A DNA stretch of 32,820 bases from Flavobacteriales bacterium (GTDB lineage Bacteria > Bacteroidota > Bacteroidia > Flavobacteriales_D > Sanyastnellaceae): NCBI GenBank assembly GCA_044356625.1, contig JBIKVX010000001.1, positions 1 through 32,820 on the forward strand, given 5' to 3'. A program made the translations under genes and the position numbers. Shown here in pieces: positions 1 to 26,497 of this stretch. The notes beneath the pieces are model-generated. The model made no database searches. It was given only the letters and a program-made list of their open reading frames with translations, and was not told the DNA's origin. Positions within the stretch are counted from its first letter, which is position 1. Every line of letters starts with the position of its first letter.

Positions 1-1155
1 TTCCAACACAAAATACTTATAAGCAGTCCTTATAAATCCCCAACCTAACTTGTCCATGTTACACTCCGTGGCCATAATAAATACAATTTGTGATTTCTCT
101 ATCTCCTTCATTTGAGAAAGCGGATCAGTATTCGTCATCTTTCTCTCAGGGAGCTTATGTAATTGTTTATTGTAAAAATAAAAATTCAACGATCGGAAAA
201 TGTCCGGCGCCCAAGGTAATTGCAGGAGATTGAAAAAATAACTGTCTGAAATAATTGCAACTTTTGGTTGAACACCAACATTTCCATTGTTAAGGCTGTA
301 CTGCAAGTTCACACTTACACGCGGATAAGCCATTGGAAGAACGTCAATAGGCCAATACAAATTCATTCCCAATCCAATGTCGTCATCCACGCTTTCTATA
401 GTGGTTGAAAGAGGGAGATCTTTTTTGTTCCAAGCGAACTCGTTCATATTATTTCCGCAACGCTTCTTACAAAAATTCACCAATGAATCGGCGGCTAACG
501 TTGCACCGTACTGACTCCAATGAATGCCCGTCTTCGGGAAAAGCGGGGCGGGCGTTTTGCCCTTCATTTCACGAAACCACTTTCCAAAGTCTATGTGCTG
601 AATACCCTGTGATTCCAAGCCTTTCTGGTATTCGGAATAATAACTGCGGTTGGAAAGAATGGGGAATTCATCTGGAATGTATTCCGGATAAAACGAGGCT
701 TTTCCGGGATTCATGACCACCACCAATTCAATGCCTTTCTCTTTCAATTTAGTTTGAAGCGCTTTCAGCATAACAAGGTTCGAATCTACCTGGGCTGTAT
801 TCACCTCTTCAGCACCGCGAAAGGCGTTGATGTATTTGATCTCGTACAAATAATCCTCCTTCCCAATGATGACCCCATTGGCCTTGGCCTTATGAAAAAG
901 TGAAAACGCAATCTGATTGTGGATGCGCACAGCAGTGTTGCGGTATCCGAATTGCTCGTTGATGTATTTGTTTCGATTCTCTTGGTAAGTGCCGTCGAAC
1001 CATGATTCGAGGGTTAGTGAATCTTTTGCAGTTGGTTCTATAGAACCGAAGAGTGGACCCACTTCAACAAAAGGTTTTACCATTTGTATCATAGGAAGAA
1101 ACATGCCTATGAGAACGATAGAGAACAAGACGGTATGGAAGCGATTGTTCTTCAT
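1..1155 (-). CDS. AlgX/AlgJ-like (SGNH-fold, DHHW-type) polysaccharide O-acetylation partner protein; 3' end runs off the window
   Basis: Absent from the ORF track because it has no in-window stop. I read the minus strand codon by codon from ATG 1155-1153 to position 1 and found no stop (385 codons). It has an N-terminal signal anchor MKNNRFHTVLFSIVLIGMFLP and an internal FPKTGIHWSQYGA motif typical of AlgJ/AlgX-type partners. Its ATG overlaps the TAA of the upstream MBOAT gene (TAATG). It displaces track ORFs 405..716(+) and 989..1174(+). Confidence 0.7.
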   Translation of the reverse strand, partial: MKNNRFHTVLFSIVLIGMFLPMIQMVKPFVEVGPLFGSIEPTAKDSLTLESWFDGTYQENRNKYINEQFGYRNTAVRIHNQIAFSLFHKAKANGVIIGKEDYLYEIKYINAFRGAEEVNTAQVDSNLVMLKALQTKLKEKGIELVVVMNPGKASFYPEYIPDEFPILSNRSYYSEYQKGLESQGIQHIDFGKWFREMKGKTPAPLFPKTGIHWSQYGATLAADSLVNFCKKRCGNNMNEFAWNKKDLPLSTTIESVDDDIGLGMNLYWPIDVLPMAYPRVSVNLQYSLNNGNVGVQPKVAIISDSYFFNLLQLPWAPDIFRSLNFYFYNKQLHKLPERKMTNTDPLSQMKEIEKSQIVFIMATECNMDKLGWGFIRTAYKYFVLE

Positions 1156-2606
1156 TAGAATCGGAAATAAATGAAGGGGTTAAATCCGCTTGCGGTGATG
1201 TAGCTCAACGAAAGAACAAAGAGCGCTGCTGAAACGATTGTCAATGCTAGATGTCCGGCGTTTCCAATTGTTCGCTGACCGAATACCGAATCTTGAAATT
1301 TCGTTGTTTTGGGAAGTAGTAAGAAGAATGAAAACAACGTCGCCAAGGCCGCAATAAGCATCCATTCGGTATCAATTTTTACCGTTACATATCCGTTGAA
1401 TGAAAACATTGCATGCAGATATCCCCATGCCCTATGCAAATCTTCCACGCGGAAAAATACCCAACCGATTACTACCACGACAAACGTGAAAGCTACGCGT
1501 GTAATTTTCCCGATGGAACCAAACCAACGGATTAAAAACGCGCGCTCCAATACCAAGAACAATCCGTGCCAAGCGCCCCAGATGATGTAGTTCCAAGAAG
1601 CTCCGTGCCACAGTCCGGAAAGTAAAAACACCAACCACAAGTTGAAGTACAATCTTCCTTTTCCCACCTTGTTTCCACCCAATGGAATGTAGAGGTAGTT
1701 GCGCATCCATCCGCCCAAGGTCATGTGCCAACGGCGCCAGAACTCGGTGATGTTTTGAGAGACATACGGATTGTTGAAGTTCTCTGGAAATTTAAATCCA
1801 ACCATTCGTCCAATCCCAATGGCCATGTCGGAATATCCGCTGAAGTCGAAATAGATTTGAAACGTGTAAGACAGCGCGGCCAACCAAGCGGCTCCCATGG
1901 AAAGCGTATTCGGATCAAGCGCACCAGCGCCTGTTTCCGCATTGCCGTATATGCTGTCTGCAAAGGCCGCCAGCGCATTGGCTATCAAAACTTTTTTTCC
2001 TAAACCAATGCAAAATCTATAAAAACCGAGCAAACGTTCGGTACTGTTTTCGGTCTTCGAACGATCGGGAATTTGATCGGCGATATCATGGTACCGAATA
2101 ATAGGACCCGCAATTAATTTCGGAAAAAGGATGATGTACAACTGATAGTCCCAAAAGTTCTTGAGCGGCTTATGCACTCTTCGAAAAACATCTACCACAT
2201 AAGTAAGTGTTTCAAAGGTGTAGAATGAAATACCTATCGGAAGCACCAACTTCGTCCATGGAATGCTGCTCTCCATACCCACTCCCTTCATAGCAACATT
2301 CACATTCTCTATGAAGAAGTTCATGTATTTGAAATACACGAGCAACCCAAGGTTCATGACCACTGAAAACACGAGTAGTGCTTTTCGCTCGGATTCATTC
2401 TTGCTGCGATCCATTCTTCCCACCAAGAAAAAATCTATGAGAGTTGTCCCAATAATGACGAAGATAAATTTCGGCGCACCCCACGCATAGAAGAACACGC
2501 TTGACAAGAGCAAGAATGGATTCTTCAATTTCTTCGGGCATATCCAATACAGCAGCAGGAAGGCTGGGAGGAAGGTGGTGAGGAAGATGGCGGATGAAAA
2601 AACCAT
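1155..2606 (-). CDS. MBOAT-family membrane O-acyltransferase (AlgI/DltB-like)
   Basis: 483-aa polytopic membrane protein. MBOAT signatures are present: ITEFWRRWHMTLGGWMRNYLYIPLGG and LSGLWHGASWNY (conserved His). It is translationally coupled to the downstream AlgX/AlgJ-like ORF. Confidence 0.9.
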   Translation of the reverse strand: MVFSSAIFLTTFLPAFLLLYWICPKKLKNPFLLLSSVFFYAWGAPKFIFVIIGTTLIDFFLVGRMDRSKNESERKALLVFSVVMNLGLLVYFKYMNFFIENVNVAMKGVGMESSIPWTKLVLPIGISFYTFETLTYVVDVFRRVHKPLKNFWDYQLYIILFPKLIAGPIIRYHDIADQIPDRSKTENSTERLLGFYRFCIGLGKKVLIANALAAFADSIYGNAETGAGALDPNTLSMGAAWLAALSYTFQIYFDFSGYSDMAIGIGRMVGFKFPENFNNPYVSQNITEFWRRWHMTLGGWMRNYLYIPLGGNKVGKGRLYFNLWLVFLLSGLWHGASWNYIIWGAWHGLFLVLERAFLIRWFGSIGKITRVAFTFVVVVIGWVFFRVEDLHRAWGYLHAMFSFNGYVTVKIDTEWMLIAALATLFSFFLLLPKTTKFQDSVFGQRTIGNAGHLALTIVSAALFVLSLSYITASGFNPFIYFRF

Positions 2607-2618: not shown

Positions 2619-2812
2619 CGGCGAAGCCGATGACACCGAAGGTGATGACCCTACGGGATGACACTGCGTGATGACCGTTCCGGATGACACTCCGTGATGA
2701 CGCTCCGCGAAGCGGTCATCGAACTTGTTCGTCATCACATGAAATGTGTCATCCCAGAGGGTCATCAATCGTAGATTGTCATCCCGAAGGGTCATCCAGC
2801 TCCGCTGGTGAT
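2619..2812. repeat. Mini-hairpin array A: 13 consecutive short stem-loops joined by ATGA (x6), then TCAT (x6) linkers
   Basis: Direct parse of the + strand: CGGCgaaGCCG ATGA CACCgaaGGTG ATGA CCCtacGGG ATGA CACtgcGTG ATGA CCGttcCGG ATGA CACtccGTG ATGA cgctCCGCgaaGCGG TCAT CGAACttGTTCG TCAT CACATgaaATGTG TCAT CCCagaGGG TCAT CAATCgtaGATTG TCAT CCCgaaGGG TCAT CCAGCtccGCTGG TGAT. It lies in the divergent gap between the MBOAT gene and the phosphosugar mutase gene. Confidence 0.85.
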
Positions 2813-2837: not shown

Positions 2838-4610
2838 ATGACCCCCTTAGAATCCGCAAAAGAAAAAGCTAGACTTTGGAAAACATACGATTTAGATGAA
2901 GAGACGCGCAACGAGATTGAGCGTATGGAAAGAGAAGATGAGAAGTTGTTCATTGATTCGTTTTATTCGGATTTGGAATTTGGAACGGGTGGTTTGCGCG
3001 GTGTCATGGGTGTGGGAAGCATGCGTATGAACAAGTATACCGTGGGGATGGCTACGCAGGGATTGGCGAATTATATTTTGAAACACCATGCGCAAATGGG
3101 TGGAGAAGGCTCGGTGGCGATTGCGTATGACTCGCGAAACAATTCAAGTTACTTCGCGAATATTGCGTCTGAGATTTTGGCGAAGAATGGCATTCATGTT
3201 TATCTCTTTTCAGAATTGCGTCCAACACCGCTGTTGTCGTTCACCGTTCGTGAATTGAAATGCACGGCGGGTATTGTTATCACTGCTTCGCACAATCCGA
3301 AGGAGTACAACGGGTATAAAGTTTATTGGAGCGATGGCGGGCAGATATTGCCGCCGCATGACGGGGGGATAATCACGGAAGTGAAGATTGCAAATGCTGC
3401 GCAAGATGTTTCACAAGATGCAAATGCTTTGCAAGATTCTTCGAAAGATTCCTTCGGAAAGATTGGTGAAATAAAGGAAGTTCCTTCGGCAGTAGAAGAA
3501 AAATACCTGGAACTCGTTCGAGGATTGACGCTTTCTGAAGATGCCGTGAAGCAAGAGAAAGACATTTCCATTGTGTATACTTCTATACACGGTTCAGGGA
3601 TAACGTTGGTACCGAAGACATTGGCGGCGTTGGGGTTTTCGAATGTGAGTGTGGTGGAAGAGCAGGCGGTGCCCGATGGGAATTTCCCGACGGTGGAGTC
3701 ACCGAATCCGGAAGAGAAGTCGGCCATGAAAATGGCGTTGGAGTTGGGAGAGAAGGTAAATGCGGAATTGGTATTGGGAACAGATCCGGATACCGATCGC
3801 GTGGGATTGGCAGTGAGAAACGACAACAATGAATTGGTGTTGATCAATGGAAATCAAGCAGGAAGCTTGTTGGTGTATTACCGTTTGTTGGTGGGAAAGG
3901 AAAAAGGAAAATTACCTGAACATCCGTTTATTGGAAAGACGATTGTGACAACCGAATTGATTGCACGCATTGCGGAATCGTTCGGGGTGCCGTGTTACGA
4001 CACGTTAACCGGATTCAAGTTTATCGCGGGATTGATTAAAGAAAAAGAAGGAAAGGAAAATTTTGTAGCGGGTGGAGAAGAGAGCTACGGCTATTTGGTG
4101 AGTGATTTTGTGCGCGACAAAGACGCTGCATTGTCGGCTGTTCAGTTCGCAGAGATAGCGGCTTACGCGAAGAACAAAGGAACAACGATGTGGGGAATGT
4201 TGAAAGACCTTTACTTACAACACGGCGTGTTCCAGGAAGAGTTGGTAAGCATTACGTTGAAGGGAATAGACGGTGTTGCGCAGATTCAAAGCATGATGTC
4301 GCGTCTTCGCACCACACCTCCGCAAACCCTTGGCGGAGTAGCGCTAGCAGAATTGCACGATGTGAAAGCTGGCACCTGTAAAAACATGATTACCGGAGCA
4401 ACAACCACACTCCCCTATCCAAGCTCAGACGTCTTGCAATTCATCCTCACCGACGGCAGCAAGATCAGTGCTCGTCCAAGTGGGACGGAACCGAAGATTA
4501 AGTTTTACTTTTCGTTAAGGAAGGAGATTTCTTCTTCAGAAGAAATTTCTTCAGTTCAGAATGAACTGACAAAGAAGATTGAAATAATTAAAGCAGAGCT
4601 TTTGAATTAA
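2838..4610 (+). CDS. Phosphoglucomutase/phosphomannomutase family phosphosugar mutase (PgcA-like)
   Basis: Family loops present: TASHNPKEYNGYK (phosphoserine loop), GTDPDTDR (metal loop), GGEESYG (sugar loop), RPSGTEPKIKFY (phosphate loop). The track ORF begins at GTG 2808 inside the promoter-like box. I prefer the in-frame ATG at 2838 (MTPLESAKEK...). Confidence 0.9.
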   Translation: MTPLESAKEKARLWKTYDLDEETRNEIERMEREDEKLFIDSFYSDLEFGTGGLRGVMGVGSMRMNKYTVGMATQGLANYILKHHAQMGGEGSVAIAYDSRNNSSYFANIASEILAKNGIHVYLFSELRPTPLLSFTVRELKCTAGIVITASHNPKEYNGYKVYWSDGGQILPPHDGGIITEVKIANAAQDVSQDANALQDSSKDSFGKIGEIKEVPSAVEEKYLELVRGLTLSEDAVKQEKDISIVYTSIHGSGITLVPKTLAALGFSNVSVVEEQAVPDGNFPTVESPNPEEKSAMKMALELGEKVNAELVLGTDPDTDRVGLAVRNDNNELVLINGNQAGSLLVYYRLLVGKEKGKLPEHPFIGKTIVTTELIARIAESFGVPCYDTLTGFKFIAGLIKEKEGKENFVAGGEESYGYLVSDFVRDKDAALSAVQFAEIAAYAKNKGTTMWGMLKDLYLQHGVFQEELVSITLKGIDGVAQIQSMMSRLRTTPPQTLGGVALAELHDVKAGTCKNMITGATTTLPYPSSDVLQFILTDGSKISARPSGTEPKIKFYFSLRKEISSSEEISSVQNELTKKIEIIKAELLN

Positions 4611-4625
4611 TTCAGCGAAGCTGAA
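4611..4625. terminator. Stem-loop TTCAGC-GAA-GCTGAA between convergent genes (possible bidirectional terminator or stabiliser)
   Basis: Perfect 6-bp stem with a GAA loop (contains GCGAAGC). It starts 1 nt after the mutase TAA and ends 6 nt before the rfbA stop. It has no clear U-tract, so terminator function is uncertain. Confidence 0.35.
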
Positions 4626-4631
4626 ATTATA

Positions 4632-5495: not shown

Positions 5496-6548
5496 TTAAC
5501 GATTAACGTATTGATTGTTGTAATAAGTTTGGTAGGCGCCACTAGTCACGTTGTTCAACCACTCCGTATTGTTCAAATACCAGTCGACTGTTTTTTCAAT
5601 GCCTTCTTCAAATTGCAAGGAAGGCTTCCAACCCAATTCGTTCATGATTTTTGTTGAATCAATGGCGTAACGCAAGTCGTGTCCCGCGCGATCGGTGACG
5701 AATTGAATAAGTTTTTCTGACTCCCCTTCAACGCGATTCAATTTACCGTCTAAAATCTTACACAGCAACTTCACCACATTTATGTTCTTCCACTCGTTGA
5801 AGCCGCCTATGTTGTATGTCTCTCCAATTTTCCCTTCGTGAAAAACTTTGTCAATGGCTTTGGCGTGATCTTCCACGAACAACCAGTCACGCACATTCTC
5901 CCCTTTTCCGTATACCGGAAGTGGTTTGTTGTGAATGATGTTGTGAATGATGAGTGGAATTAGTTTTTCTGGAAAATGATTCGGACCGTAGTTGTTCGAG
6001 CAGTTGCTAATGACAATGGGAAGTCCGTAGGTGTTTCCGTAAGCACGAACGAAATGATCGGAAGCCGCCTTGGAAGCCGAATACGGCGAACGCGGATCGT
6101 AGGATGTTTCTTCGGTGAAGAAGTCCTTGGGGTTGTGCAACTCTCCGTATACTTCATCGGTAGAAACGTGGTAAAAGCGTTTCCCCTCGAAGTTGTTTTT
6201 CCAATTTGCAACGGCAGCGTTCAACAACGTAACGGTACCGACCACATTGGTTTGCACAAACTCCATCGGGTTAGTAATGCTCCGATCTACATGCGACTCT
6301 GCGGCCAAATGAATAACACCGTTGAAATTGTATTTCTCGAATAAAGACTTTACAAAAGCGGCATCTGCTATGTCCCCTTTCTCAAAGGAGTAATTCTGAA
6401 GATGCTCCACATCTTTCAAATTCTCTAAATTCCCTGCATAAGTAAGTTTATCGAGGTTTACGACATTCACATCGGTATGCGTCAATAAAAAATGACGAAC
6501 AACGTGCGAGCCAATGAATCCGGCACCGCCGGTGACGAGGATAGTCAT
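5496..6548 (-). CDS. rfbB: dTDP-glucose 4,6-dehydratase
   Basis: ILVTGGAGFIGSH Rossmann motif, YSASKAASD (YxxxK), 350 aa, immediately upstream of rfbA. Confidence 0.95.
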   Translation of the reverse strand: MTILVTGGAGFIGSHVVRHFLLTHTDVNVVNLDKLTYAGNLENLKDVEHLQNYSFEKGDIADAAFVKSLFEKYNFNGVIHLAAESHVDRSITNPMEFVQTNVVGTVTLLNAAVANWKNNFEGKRFYHVSTDEVYGELHNPKDFFTEETSYDPRSPYSASKAASDHFVRAYGNTYGLPIVISNCSNNYGPNHFPEKLIPLIIHNIIHNKPLPVYGKGENVRDWLFVEDHAKAIDKVFHEGKIGETYNIGGFNEWKNINVVKLLCKILDGKLNRVEGESEKLIQFVTDRAGHDLRYAIDSTKIMNELGWKPSLQFEEGIEKTVDWYLNNTEWLNNVTSGAYQTYYNNQYVNR

Positions 6549-20232: not shown

Positions 20233-20318
20233 AATTAACTTTTAAGCGAAGATACGAATAGACCAAACATTGTTAAGAAAAGAAGGATGAACTTCGTAAT
20301 TGGAAAACCTTTGGTTTT

Positions 20319-20360
20319 ATTCCTACTTCGTAATTCCTATTTCATAATTCCTACTTTGTA
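20319..20360. repeat. Three tandem 14-bp repeats ATTCCTAYTTYRTA upstream of the dehydrogenase/EPS operon
   Basis: attcctacttcgta (20319-20332), attcctatttcata (20333-20346), attcctactttgta (20347-20360). A partial copy cttcgtaatt lies at 20292-20301. Confidence 0.8.
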
Positions 20361-20427
20361 ATTAGAAACGTCGCAGGCCCTCGTCCACAGGACCCTCGCA
20401 ACGACAGTTGCCCTCGTCTAAAAGACC

Positions 20428-24680: not shown

Positions 24681-25718
24681 TTAGTCTTCCAGGTGAATGG
24701 GGTAAATAATTTCATTCGCAGGAATGGACGAAGTGGTGCGTTTTCCAACCACCAAATTTCGTTGTGCCCATTTGAAACCGTCTCCTGGAGAGAGCATGCA
24801 CAAGTCTGATTCTTCAATAATTTTTCCAGCTGGAATTTCACGAACGGCAGCAATGCTTCTTTCCAATTTCAAGCGAGCGGAAGCAACAGAATCTTCAATC
24901 TTCATTTCCACTTCACCCAAAGACAATTCGAGTTCACGAATGTCGCGCACCATGCGTCGAATGCCTTCTGGGCCGAGGGATCCGCGCTGGTCGGTTCCCT
25001 TCAGATTACGATCAGTGGTGATGTGCTTTTCAATGATGGTAGCCCCCATAGCAACGGCGGCAACCGGAGTAAAAATTCCGAGCGTGTGATCGCTGAAACC
25101 AATGTTGTATTGAGGGTAGTTGTTTTGTAAAAAGCGAATGGTATTTAGATTTACATTCTTCGGCTGCGTGGGGTATTCCGAGGTGCAGTGAAGAATGCTA
25201 ATGTTTGAATGGTAATGCGAAATAATGTCTAACGCATGATCGAGCTCTTCCTTTCCGGCCATACCGGTAGAGAGAATGATCGGAATTTTCGTTTCCGCCA
25301 AAGCTCCCAATAGCGGGAGGTTCGTGAGGTCGCGACTTGCAACTTTCAGATAATCGGGGGTGATTCGTTTCAACAACGAAAGACATCCAGTTGCGCAAAG
25401 CGTTTCCACAAAATCTAATCCTTTCGATTTAGAATAATGAAACAATTCTTCATGTTGCTCGTCGTTCAATTCAAGAAATGCCCTGTGTTCACCGTAAGTG
25501 GCACCGAAGGAATGTGGACTGTTGTAGGGCGCATTCATTTGCGATTGACTGAGTTCTTCATTCAAGTCGCGCTTGGTGAGCTTCACCGCATTCATGGGTT
25601 TCAGTTCGAGCTGAAAATAATCTTCCACGACAGGAGCAGCTGCGAGGTCTATGATTTCCTTCGCCAGCTCTATTGAACCGTTGTGGTTTTGTCCTATTTC
25701 TCCGATTATGTAGGTCAC
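24681..25718 (-). CDS. NeuB-family nonulosonic acid (sialic acid / KDN-9-P type) synthase with C-terminal SAF domain
   Basis: YIIGEIGQNHNGS N-terminal motif, HCTSEYPTQPKNVNL, GFSDHTLG, EKHIT, and a C-terminal SAF-like domain. The track ORF extends to ATG 25835 inside repeat array B. I start at in-frame GTG 25718 (VTYIIGEIG...), by analogy with the short N-termini of NeuB enzymes. Confidence 0.85.
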   Translation of the reverse strand: MTYIIGEIGQNHNGSIELAKEIIDLAAAPVVEDYFQLELKPMNAVKLTKRDLNEELSQSQMNAPYNSPHSFGATYGEHRAFLELNDEQHEELFHYSKSKGLDFVETLCATGCLSLLKRITPDYLKVASRDLTNLPLLGALAETKIPIILSTGMAGKEELDHALDIISHYHSNISILHCTSEYPTQPKNVNLNTIRFLQNNYPQYNIGFSDHTLGIFTPVAAVAMGATIIEKHITTDRNLKGTDQRGSLGPEGIRRMVRDIRELELSLGEVEMKIEDSVASARLKLERSIAAVREIPAGKIIEESDLCMLSPGDGFKWAQRNLVVGKRTTSSIPANEIIYPIHLED

Positions 25719-25722
25719 TTTA

Positions 25723-25730
25723 CAAATATA
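25723..25730 (-). promoter_or_regulatory. Candidate -7 box TATATTTG abutting array B, 4 nt upstream of the GTG start of the NeuB-like gene
   Basis: The minus strand reads CACGCGAAGTG-TG-TATATTTG-TAAA-GTG. This is the same 8-mer that follows array A. Confidence 0.3.
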
Positions 25731-25732
25731 CA

Positions 25733-25898
25733 CACTTCGCGTGATGACCACTTCGTGGAATACACCTGCTGTGATGACCCTGCGGGATGACGCTTCGCGA
25801 TGACACTTCGTGACAACCATCCGCGAAGCGGTCATCGAACTTGTTCGTCATCGATTGTAAATCGTCATCACACGACGTCTGTCATCCTTCGAAGAAGG
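25733..25898. repeat. Mini-hairpin array B: 11 stem-loops with ATGA-type, then TCAT linkers; same family as array A
   Basis: The + strand parses as CACttcgcGTG ATGA CCACttcGTGG AATA CACctgctGTG ATGA CCCtgcGGG ATGA CGCttcGCG ATGA CACttcGTG ACAA ccatCCGCgaaGCGG TCAT CGAACttGTTCG TCAT CGATTgtaAATCG TCAT CACACgacGTCTG TCAT CCTTCgaaGAAGG. The array ends exactly at the TAA of the DUF2480-like gene (25899-25901). Confidence 0.85.
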
Positions 25899-26393
25899 TT
25901 AACGCTTATAAAGCGGGACAGTGGAGCAGGGCTCTCCGTACATGATGCGGTTGGCAGCGGGTTGAAGTTTTTGAGAGAGTTGTATATACACTTCCTCTGT
26001 TAATCGGAGTGAGGTGCAGCCCTTCACGACTACATTTTTATCTTGAAATTTCGAAAGATCTAATTGTTGAATAAATGAAAGCGCTCTGAGTGTGTCTAAA
26101 TTTTCTGGCGTTGAAAAATGACACTGGGCATTCACTTCGGAAAGTTTCAATGCCAATAGCATAAAGGCCCATACTGGTACAATGGCATCTACCGAACAGT
26201 AAATGGCTACAATTTTATTCTCGAAATTAGAGGTGTCTAATGCAGAAACAAATTCACGAAAGTCCTTTTCCTTCAGGGCAATTCCTTGCCACAATTGTGG
26301 AGCAATATCTATTGTCGAACCTGCAAACGCATCTACTTCTTCAGCTATATCCAGCGTAATGAGTTTACTATTTGCAACCTTGTTTTCAATCAT
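25899..26393 (-). CDS. DUF2480-like conserved Bacteroidota protein (function unknown)
   Basis: 164 aa. LITLDI...KEKDFREF...CSVDAIVPVWAFML...VVKGC...IMYGEPCSTVPLYKR matches my recollection of the DUF2480 family pattern. No search was run. Confidence 0.55.
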   Translation of the reverse strand: MIENKVANSKLITLDIAEEVDAFAGSTIDIAPQLWQGIALKEKDFREFVSALDTSNFENKIVAIYCSVDAIVPVWAFMLLALKLSEVNAQCHFSTPENLDTLRALSFIQQLDLSKFQDKNVVVKGCTSLRLTEEVYIQLSQKLQPAANRIMYGEPCSTVPLYKR

Positions 26394-26397
26394 GGTT

Positions 26398-26405
26398 CAA
26401 AAGTA
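26398..26405 (-). promoter_or_regulatory. Candidate -7 box TACTTTTG, 4 nt upstream of the DUF2480-like ATG
   Basis: The minus strand reads TACTTTTG-AACC-ATG, an exact TAnnTTTG match. Confidence 0.3.
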
Positions 26406-26497
26406 CTTGATTCTGGTGAAAGATGTTTCACAAGATTCTGCGAAAGCTCTTGCGAAGCACCTTCGGAACGACCTTGCTCCGCATCTTGAAACAAATC

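Follow-up and report, generated by a model that had tools for sequence, protein, structure and literature searches.

The subject of this analysis is a stretch of 32,820 nucleotides from a Flavobacteriales bacterium of the Sanyastnellaceae (contig JBIKVX010000001.1, positions 1 to 32,820; the window hereafter), and specifically a 33-nucleotide sequence, TCCGCGAAGCGGTCATCGAACTTGTTCGTCATC, that lies at the mid-point of each of two intergenic repeat arrays. The reading favored here, to which we give about an even chance, is that the 33-mer is a hinge, consisting of a conserved center and the first unit of the right arm, and that the two arrays are gene-less repeat arms of cassettes of the PF05635/TIGR02436 protein family. 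A scan of the window located exact copies of the 33-mer on the plus strand at 2704-2736 and 25820-25852, with no third copy in the window at three or fewer mismatches and no match in 100 shuffles. The sequence is composed of 11 nt of a 13-nt center, the linker GTCATC, the unit GAACTTGTTC and a second GTCATC. Sites reading GATGAC or GTCATC number 29 in the window, where about 13 are expected, and 20 of these fall inside the two arrays, the features of which are as follows.

About 2620-2807: array 1 overall, with six GATGAC at 2629-2701, the center at 2702-2714 and six GTCATC at 2715-2796.
2620-2701: left arm of array 1, with the outer unit GGCGAAGCC followed by six GATGAC linkers.
2702-2714, plus strand: center of array 1, GCTCCGCGAAGCG, an asymmetric near-palindrome containing the CGCGAAGCG mini-hairpin and forming the family-wide hinge between arms.
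2704-2736, plus strand: first copy of the 33-mer.
2715-2807: right arm of array 1, with six GTCATC, the units GAACTTGTTC, ACATGAAATGT, CCAGAGG, AATCGTAGATT and CCGAAGG, and the terminal unit CAGCTCCGCTG.
About 25731-25897: array 2 overall, with four GATGAC and two decayed linkers, the variant center at 25818-25830 and four GTCATC at 25831-25886.
25731-25817: left arm of array 2, with GATGAC at 25743, 25773, 25786 and 25799.
25818-25830, plus strand: variant center of array 2, CATCCGCGAAGCG.
25820-25852, plus strand: second copy of the 33-mer.
25831-25897: right arm of array 2, with four GTCATC, the units GAACTTGTTC, GATTGTAAATC and ACACGACGTCT (one mismatch), and the last unit CTTCGAAGAAG.

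The units between the linkers of the left arm of array 1 are self-complementary (ACCGAAGGT, CCTACGG, ACTGCGT, CGTTCCG and ACTCCGT), and its right arm abuts the TATATTTG -7 box of a phosphoglucomutase gene. The left arm of array 2 abuts, at its outer end, the TATATTTG -7 box (minus strand) of a NeuB-like gene, while its right arm terminates 1 nt short of the stop codon of a DUF2480 gene. The decayed linkers of array 2 lie within 25749-25772 and, as GACAAC, at 25812-25817; a near-identical variant of its center (GACAAT/AATCCGCGAAGCG) is found in the orthologous array of a related locus, L117.

A preliminary description of this DNA held that the 33-mer is common to both arrays in the same orientation, as the exact matches at the two sites confirm, and that outside it the arrays share only their linker grammar. 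The latter does not hold: a local alignment of array 1 with array 2 runs for about 120 nt (2656-2775 against 25772-25895), mismatches included, and the 33-mer is thus merely the perfect part of a longer homology. Similarly, two units quoted in that description as equivalent and diverged, ACATGAAATGT at 2737-2747 and GATTGTAAATC at 25853-25863, are indeed present and both pair, but they are not diverged copies of one ancestor. Rather, they are different words of a common vocabulary, each following the GAACTTGTTC unit in one array of L130, and the pair represents word replacement and not in-place covariation.

Arrays of this type constitute a dispersed family. Each arm alternates 6-nt linkers (GATGAC on the left, the complement GTCATC on the right) with self-complementary units whose lengths are 7, 9, 11 or 13 nt, giving linker spacings of 13, 15, 17 or 19 nt, and the arms meet at the asymmetric 13-nt center GCTCCGCGAAGCG. 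A catalog compiled from 63 low-GC related loci (cited here by L numbers) and the window comprises 86 arrays, nearly all of them intergenic; 65 are two-armed, every one with the polarity GATGAC, center, GTCATC, and the other 21 are one-armed, several ending in the center. Density is considerable, with two arrays in the 32.8-kb window and at least three per contig of 30-60 kb. Across the data set 19 exact copies of the 33-mer were counted, two in the window and 17 at loci from other genomes or metagenomes, and the 13-nt center or a close variant is present in every two-armed array found independently of the center, findings that substantiate the earlier suggestion of a dispersed element family built on a conserved core. 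In 31 of 51 cases the unit adjoining the center on its GAAGCG side has the form GRAC...GTYC, and the conserved core is therefore the center together with that first unit. The 704 units draw upon 136 distinct words (for example ACATGAAATGT, n = 22, and GATTGTAAATC/GATTGAAAATC, n = 26), and only about 4-5% of linkers are degenerate.

With regard to distribution, a scan for the array grammar (GATGAC-N7 repeated three times, one genome per species) identified true arrays, among the matches listed, only in freshwater Flavobacteriales, Crocinitomicaceae and Bacteroidota metagenome-assembled genomes (MAGs); the rest of the matches listed were mostly chance or coding repeats of high-GC genomes, and those in Sphingobacterium, Fibrella, Chitinophagales and Lentimicrobiaceae were rejected as plain tandem repeats without a hairpin array. 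A metagenome scan using a 25-nt center plus linkers returned 42 loci. In the viral contigs of IMG/VR the center was absent and the grammar pattern matched only unrelated simple repeats, and a phage origin was rejected on this basis. One GATGAC array (L038, 5340-5480) lies on a contig labeled as a Chryseobacterium gleum MAG, which is probably mis-binned, since the sequence flanking the array corresponds to the AccC/LepA locus in the freshwater Flavobacteriales lineage. No description of these hairpin arrays was found in the literature.

Pairing within the units is close to complete. Specifically, 676 of 704 units pair perfectly, and the 2154 stem pairs comprise 2119 Watson-Crick pairs, 34 mismatches and a single G-T pair, whereas shuffled units yield 29% Watson-Crick and 12% G-T. 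Among distinct unit sequences 117 of 136 are perfect (3% expected). When distinct units were aligned, 98.6% of cells paired in the 11-nt set (64% shuffled) and 96.5% in the 9-nt set (71% shuffled); slid-alignment controls paired at 24-49%, and in neither set did any of 500 shuffles reach the observed value. All stem changes in these alignments are two-sided (50 in the 11-nt and 35 in the 9-nt set, against zero one-sided), in agreement with the structural selection that had been raised as one possibility in the preliminary description. On the strand reading GTCATC most triloops are GAA, GCA, GTA or GGA, and C-G closes 76% of the triloops, mostly as C(GNA)G, a motif reported to be an unusually stable DNA mini-hairpin (PMC13037366). 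Because G-T pairs are nearly absent and C(GNA)G loops preferred, folding at the level of DNA is favored, as had been supposed earlier for DNA or single-stranded DNA (ssDNA). Folding of single arms under generic nearest-neighbor DNA parameters is weak (z = -1 to -2.7); this energy model does not account for the particular stability of GNA mini-hairpins, and the evidence for hairpins is therefore statistical.

Comparison of orthologous sites, in syntenic relatives identified by blastn at 84-95% identity, reveals pronounced conservation. Collinear orthologues of array 1 differ from the window by 1-3 of 168 positions (0.6-1.8%), the few changes falling in loops or at the innermost pair, where the flanking coding DNA is 5-11% divergent and third codon positions 12-32%. 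Across five sets of orthologous arrays, differences per site amount to 0.30 for the middle loop base, 0.08 for the loop edges and 0.03 for stems, and 14 of the 20 stem differences form seven compensatory pairs. Change in linkers and stems is thus slower than at adjacent third codon positions by a factor of 10-40, with the middle loop base evolving at roughly the neutral rate, and arrays are kept at every orthologous site examined.

Structural turnover is nonetheless common: blocks of two to four units have been triplicated, units lost, and the center inverted together with neighboring units. With respect to its flanks, array 2 has the opposite orientation in L128, L157 and L129; no more than 35 of 80 orthologous pairs agree in the orientation of the center; and two arrays of L117 are copies of each other with a common variant center. 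In short, the arrays evolve through duplications and deletions of blocks and through inversions that span the center. Outward growth from a central seed, as previously proposed, was rejected, inner units being not more variable than outer ones; units adjacent to the center are shared between orthologues at 0.41 and outer units at 0.24. Divergence shifts abruptly across some arrays, which may mark recombination breakpoints. Flanking an array in L122 (2359-2527) and its counterpart in L155 (588-756), for instance, the left side is identical at 500 of 500 positions and the right side at 90.6%, and between window positions 24681-26393 and L128 third codon positions diverge by 5% toward NeuB and by 22% toward DUF2480.

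The association with a protein family is observed in related genomes. At one locus, in seven genomes, a 116-aa gene (IVP-1, at 1453-1803 in L115) has GATGAC arrays on both sides, and its product belongs to PF05635 (23S rRNA intervening-sequence protein, E = 1e-15) and TIGR02436 (four helix bundle protein) and matches PDB 2rld; a GATGAC-flanked gene is also carried by the contig of L129 and L158, which is 87% identical to the window over 8.5 kb. A second paralogue is flanked by AAGAT/ATCTT arrays (L134, L169, L170 and L171) in the YceD-AccB spacer, a site that in six other loci (L120, L122, L123, L127, L083 and L155) holds a gene-less GATGAC array. A third, flanked by GTAAAT/ACTTAC repeats (L150, L172 and L173), lies between the convergent phosphoglucomutase (PGM) and rmlA genes. 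At this last site the window has a single hairpin, TTCAGCGAAGCTGAA at 4611-4631, and is nearly empty, while the filled site of relatives (L150, 4700-5900; L172, 1984-3127) holds about 1.1 kb of repeats, PF05635 gene and repeats; no obvious target-site duplication, of the kind that marks a MITE, was seen at this IVP-3 cassette site, the sole empty/filled pair available. In all three paralogues of the lineage, inverted arms of short tandem repeats bracket the open reading frame (ORF).

A comparable arrangement is found in the eight distant homologues from other taxa that were looked up, all of which are bracketed flush by inverted repeats, 26-44 nt long, of tandem 7-mers. These repeats are 77-100% complementary and represent five repeat types at six insertion sites, and the homologues themselves are lodged between other genes (for example ruvA/ruvB, after lepA, and between restriction-modification methylase and endonuclease). 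In a Thermoanaerobaculales MAG of 66% G+C, two weakly PF05635-like ORFs each have, about 100 nt upstream, a 13-nt tandem repeat of CGGGACC or CGTGGCC plus GATGAC, with four GATGAC copies (L009, 500-1046; L105, 7270-7818); the same repeat is present without an ORF at the end of L094. The preliminary description missed both this link to PF05635 cassettes and the mirror polarity of the arms.

The family itself is very large, a protein search returning 7874 matches and members numbering in the thousands across bacteria. To our knowledge PF05635/TIGR02436 proteins have no function assigned outside diversity-generating retroelements (DGRs). PADLOC gave no defense-system match for the three proteins, and a defense-system link was rejected accordingly; a search of the literature found no description of PF05635 cassettes outside rRNA. 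In a figure legend of a 2023 paper on CRISPR clustering, '23S rRNA IVP' is listed among CRISPR-associated genes (PMC10910872), a listing that may possibly stem from PF05635 repeat arms having been called as CRISPR arrays.

Under the cassette reading, one gene-bearing copy would reside inside GATGAC arrays, and many gene-less arrays, both of the window's among them, would be scattered between genes. The cognate four-helix-bundle protein would recognize the linker repeats, as is suggested by each paralogue having a linker family of its own and by how strongly the linkers are conserved; the hairpins would fold once the DNA becomes single-stranded; and recognition by the protein would keep linkers and stems under selection. 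A broader proposal, possible though in our estimation somewhat doubtful, is that PF05635/TIGR02436 proteins may in general be sequence-specific readers of the tandem repeats bracketing their own genes. They would then define an unrecognized class of element without a nuclease or transposase domain, a counterpart to the RAYT-REPIN system (REP-associated tyrosine transposases and the paired repeats among which they lie), and this class would have seeded gene-less hairpin arrays, now under purifying selection, in one freshwater Flavobacteriales lineage.

Several points weigh against the cassette reading. Firstly, the window has no PF05635 gene, and the protein link therefore rests on relatives; the three associations in the lineage amount to three independent events, in a sample chosen for its array content. 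Secondly, in gene-bearing loci the gene sits inside one arm and not at the center, so the center is not simply a deletion scar. Thirdly, we know of no catalytic activity in the PF05635 family able to copy or move DNA, and such genes might merely insert preferentially into hairpin-rich DNA. Additionally, the low divergence of the arrays could result in part from recent recombination and not from selection, and the partial decay of array 2, in which two linkers are degenerate, one unit has a mismatch and the center is a variant, shows that constraint is not uniform.

Among the known systems closest to these arrays are the repetitive extragenic palindromic (REP) sequences, their bacterial interspersed mosaic elements (BIMEs) and REPINs, with the associated RAYT. 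As in those systems, short extragenic palindromes occur here in high copy, clustered and in inverted arrangement, with several families per genome; as in RAYT-REPIN, one protein gene lies within its own repeats while many gene-less copies, vertically inherited and conserved, lie elsewhere. It may be asked whether the arrays are REP/BIME-like palindromes spread by an unseen ssDNA enzyme (a RAYT or other HUH transposase), with the PF05635 genes as passengers that landed in hairpin-rich DNA. We judge this unlikely. High copy number, extragenic location, hairpin pairing without G-T, REPIN-like clustering with inverted arms, a multiplicity of repeat families such as several RAYTs would produce, and the presence of other accessory genes between arrays (a DUF4143 ATPase and a HigBA-like pair) are all consistent with it. 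However, a phmmer search with E. coli RayT, covering some 430 kb of related loci, found nothing with E <= 10, a weak test given the small sample, and linker families track PF05635 paralogues at three loci, with eight of eight distant PF05635 genes having inverted repeats of their own. The design is, moreover, the reverse of that of REPs, in which the palindrome of 20-40 nt is conserved; here palindromes of 7-13 nt vary (136 words) and the 6-nt linker is constant. The REP tag GTAG/CGTC (PMC3733652) is likewise lacking, there being no GTAG, and CGTC arising only when a unit happens to end in C. The arms are clean blocks around a conserved center in place of units that alternate in orientation, and the associated gene encodes a four-helix-bundle protein in place of an HUH enzyme.

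The accessory genes just mentioned were seen at two loci. In L150 (7200-9900) a DUF4143/AAA_14 ATPase gene is inserted in the array-1 orthologue, and in L117 (600-1960) a Gp49/HTH (HigBA-like) pair lies between two direct-copy arrays with the same variant center.

Action at the level of RNA is accorded a similarly small chance. Under this alternative a transcript arriving from either flank would contain the GAUGAC-linked hairpins, followed by the complementary GUCAUC arm, and could fold into a large branched hairpin serving termination, insulation or RNase III cleavage. Folding of whole arrays does exceed that of shuffles by a wide margin (array 1, z = -7.7 and -8.4; array 2, z = -3.7 and -3.1), a terminal unit plus T-rich sequence scores as terminator-like, and arrays start 10-20 nt past stop codons. 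A precedent exists in the intervening sequences (IVSs) of 23S rRNA, the stems of which are cut by RNase III (PMC4990558). Arm sizes, however, are uncorrelated (r = 0.10) and unit lengths are unequal between arms, so that a balanced arm-to-arm helix is not maintained, and a single long conserved hairpin was rejected despite the good folding. G-U pairs are absent (1 of 2154, against 12% shuffled). The arrays end some 60-90 nt before start codons and lie between 29 tandem, 16 convergent and 15 divergent gene pairs, about chance proportions, which disfavor a dedicated terminator or 5' regulatory element, rejected on that split; at divergent-promoter sites no read-through transcript would be expected. 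Rfam 15 (MAEB and Flavo-1 included) gave no gathering-score match in the window, and the arrays, searched at E < 10, gave only chance-level matches to eukaryotic snoRNA, miRNA and sRNA families, such that a known structured RNA family was rejected.

Two other systems merit comparison. The IVSs of Coxiella and Leptospira involve the same ORF family, enclosed by inverted repeats and adjoined by short tandem repeats of variable copy number, and are sporadic in distribution in a manner suggesting mobility. In Coxiella the S23p ORF has variable tandem heptamers (GACAGAT, two to three copies) as neighbors, the stem cut by RNase III is made of inverted repeats, and the old hypothesis that the ORF serves mobility is cited in the same work (PMC4990558). 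Unlike IVSs, which reside in helix 25 or 45 of 23S rRNA, the arrays described here lie between protein-coding genes, their arms consist of linker and mini-hairpin units extending up to about 300 nt, and an ORF is lacking from most copies; both window arrays show the two-arm design of the PF05635 cassettes, with the ORF absent. The MAEB motif of Burkholderia (PMC1950547) similarly consists of 2-12 or more small intergenic hairpins with a conserved short linker, and both may act as RNA, as DNA or as a repeat element. In MAEB, however, a single conserved hairpin recurs in the same orientation, and 132 of 141 cases lie upstream of metabolic genes, whereas the arrays described here combine differing hairpins with a bipolar plan around a center, in a context that appears random.

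A platform for a double-stranded DNA-binding protein unrelated to PF05635, nucleoid or regulatory, which would read GATGAC and for which the palindromic spacers would be incidental, has only a slim chance of being correct. The linker is indeed conserved across loci and genomes (about 4-5% degenerate), and the arrays abut -7 promoter boxes. The linker spacing of 13, 15, 17 or 19 bp, however, provides no helical phasing, the C(GNA)G loop preference and perfect stems point to single-strand folding, and the same design recurs in at least five other linker families. Finally, a neutral by-product of replication slippage or template switching in hairpin-prone DNA, with neither trans factor nor selection, is disfavored as very improbable: block duplications, deletions and inversions are frequent, and template switching can restore perfect palindromes without G-T intermediates (as is generally known of quasi-palindrome mutagenesis), but the 10-40-fold slower evolution of linkers and stems relative to neighboring third codon positions, set beside a near-neutral middle loop base, speaks against it, as do the retention of arrays at every orthologous site examined and the same center and linker in all genomes.

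Two further systems were also compared. The Avd protein of DGRs is of the same fold family (NF033474 matched two of the four PF05635 proteins scanned, weakly, at about 20 bits against a cut-off of 80) and is, likewise, a small nucleic-acid-associated helper protein of a genetic element, but here there is neither reverse transcriptase nor template and variable repeats. CRISPR arrays combine repeats of 24-48 nt with unique spacers of similar length and have cas genes nearby, whereas here a 6-nt repeat separates palindromic spacers of 7-13 nt drawn from a common vocabulary; no cas domain was found in the 20 of 26 large window ORFs that were scanned.

The GATGAC arrays are accompanied, in the same genomes, by at least five further families of the same design with other linkers. 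These include an ATCAAT/ATTGAT family with its own center (L043), the GTAAAT/ACTTAC family (L150), and a CAAGAT/ATCTTG family that occurs also in L120 and L134 and flanks the IVP-2 paralogue in related genomes; GCGAAGC is common to the centers of the GATGAC, ATCAAT and AAGAT families. Three such features are present in the window.

3384-3470, plus strand: CAAGAT-linker hairpin run, in frame within the phosphoglucomutase coding sequence, between Pfam domains I and II.
20300-20427: two linker and mini-hairpin runs, ATTCC with TAYTTYRTA three times, then CCCTCG with TCCACAGGA, CAACGACAGTTG and TCTAAAAGA.
26420-26490: small CAAGAT ... ATCTTG two-armed array with TGCGAAGCA in the middle and the architecture of the GATGAC arrays; repeats of this linker family occupy 26394-26497.

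The run at 3384-3470 encodes a low-complexity stretch (..QDVSQDANALQDSSKDSFGK..), and the L149 and L150 orthologues have different repeat content there. This in-frame run of a sister linker recalls the Rickettsia palindromic elements, which are single elements of 100-150 bp lying in frame in genes and not runs of linkers and hairpins. The runs at 20300-20427 occupy the spacer between UDP-glucose dehydrogenase and histidine-kinase genes, and a similar ATTCC run is found in L150. Beside a GATGAC run in L012 there is also a CATTCG-linker hairpin run (5700-5790; CCGCAGG, TACGAAGTA and CCCAAAGGG), just upstream of what is, by appearance, a putative tRNA gene.

The window itself derives from a Bacteroidota chromosome of 41% G+C with TAnnTTTG -7 boxes and a polysaccharide-synthesis cluster. 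The genes adjoining the two arrays are these.

1155-2606, minus strand: MBOAT gene, divergent, to the left of array 1.
2838-4610, plus strand: PGM gene, to the right of array 1.
24681-25712, minus strand: NeuB-like gene, its start facing array 2.
25899-26393, minus strand: DUF2480 gene, its stop codon facing array 2.

The -7 boxes (TATATTCG / TATATTTG) touch the outermost array unit at 2596-2628, 2808-2840 and 25713-25742 and, as they directly adjoin these units, the arrays occupy the -33 and upstream promoter region. The MBOAT start codon lies no more than about 10 nt past its -7 box, suggesting a leaderless mRNA or one with a very short leader.

Taken together, these arrays are extragenic palindromic repeats of a distinct design (a constant linker, variable mini-hairpins and mirror-image arms around a hinge), which reverses that of REPs and is unlike that of CRISPR. 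They are unlikely to be junk, given stems and linkers that hardly change beside a middle loop base that drifts freely, and they seem to mark sites at which accessory genes and recombination breakpoints gather; in practical terms they can break assemblies and be miscalled as CRISPR arrays. For PF05635/TIGR02436, a very large orphan family, the pairing of each paralogue with its own repeats provides a testable idea, namely that these proteins may bind those repeats, and offers a route to understanding how rRNA intervening sequences arise and move.

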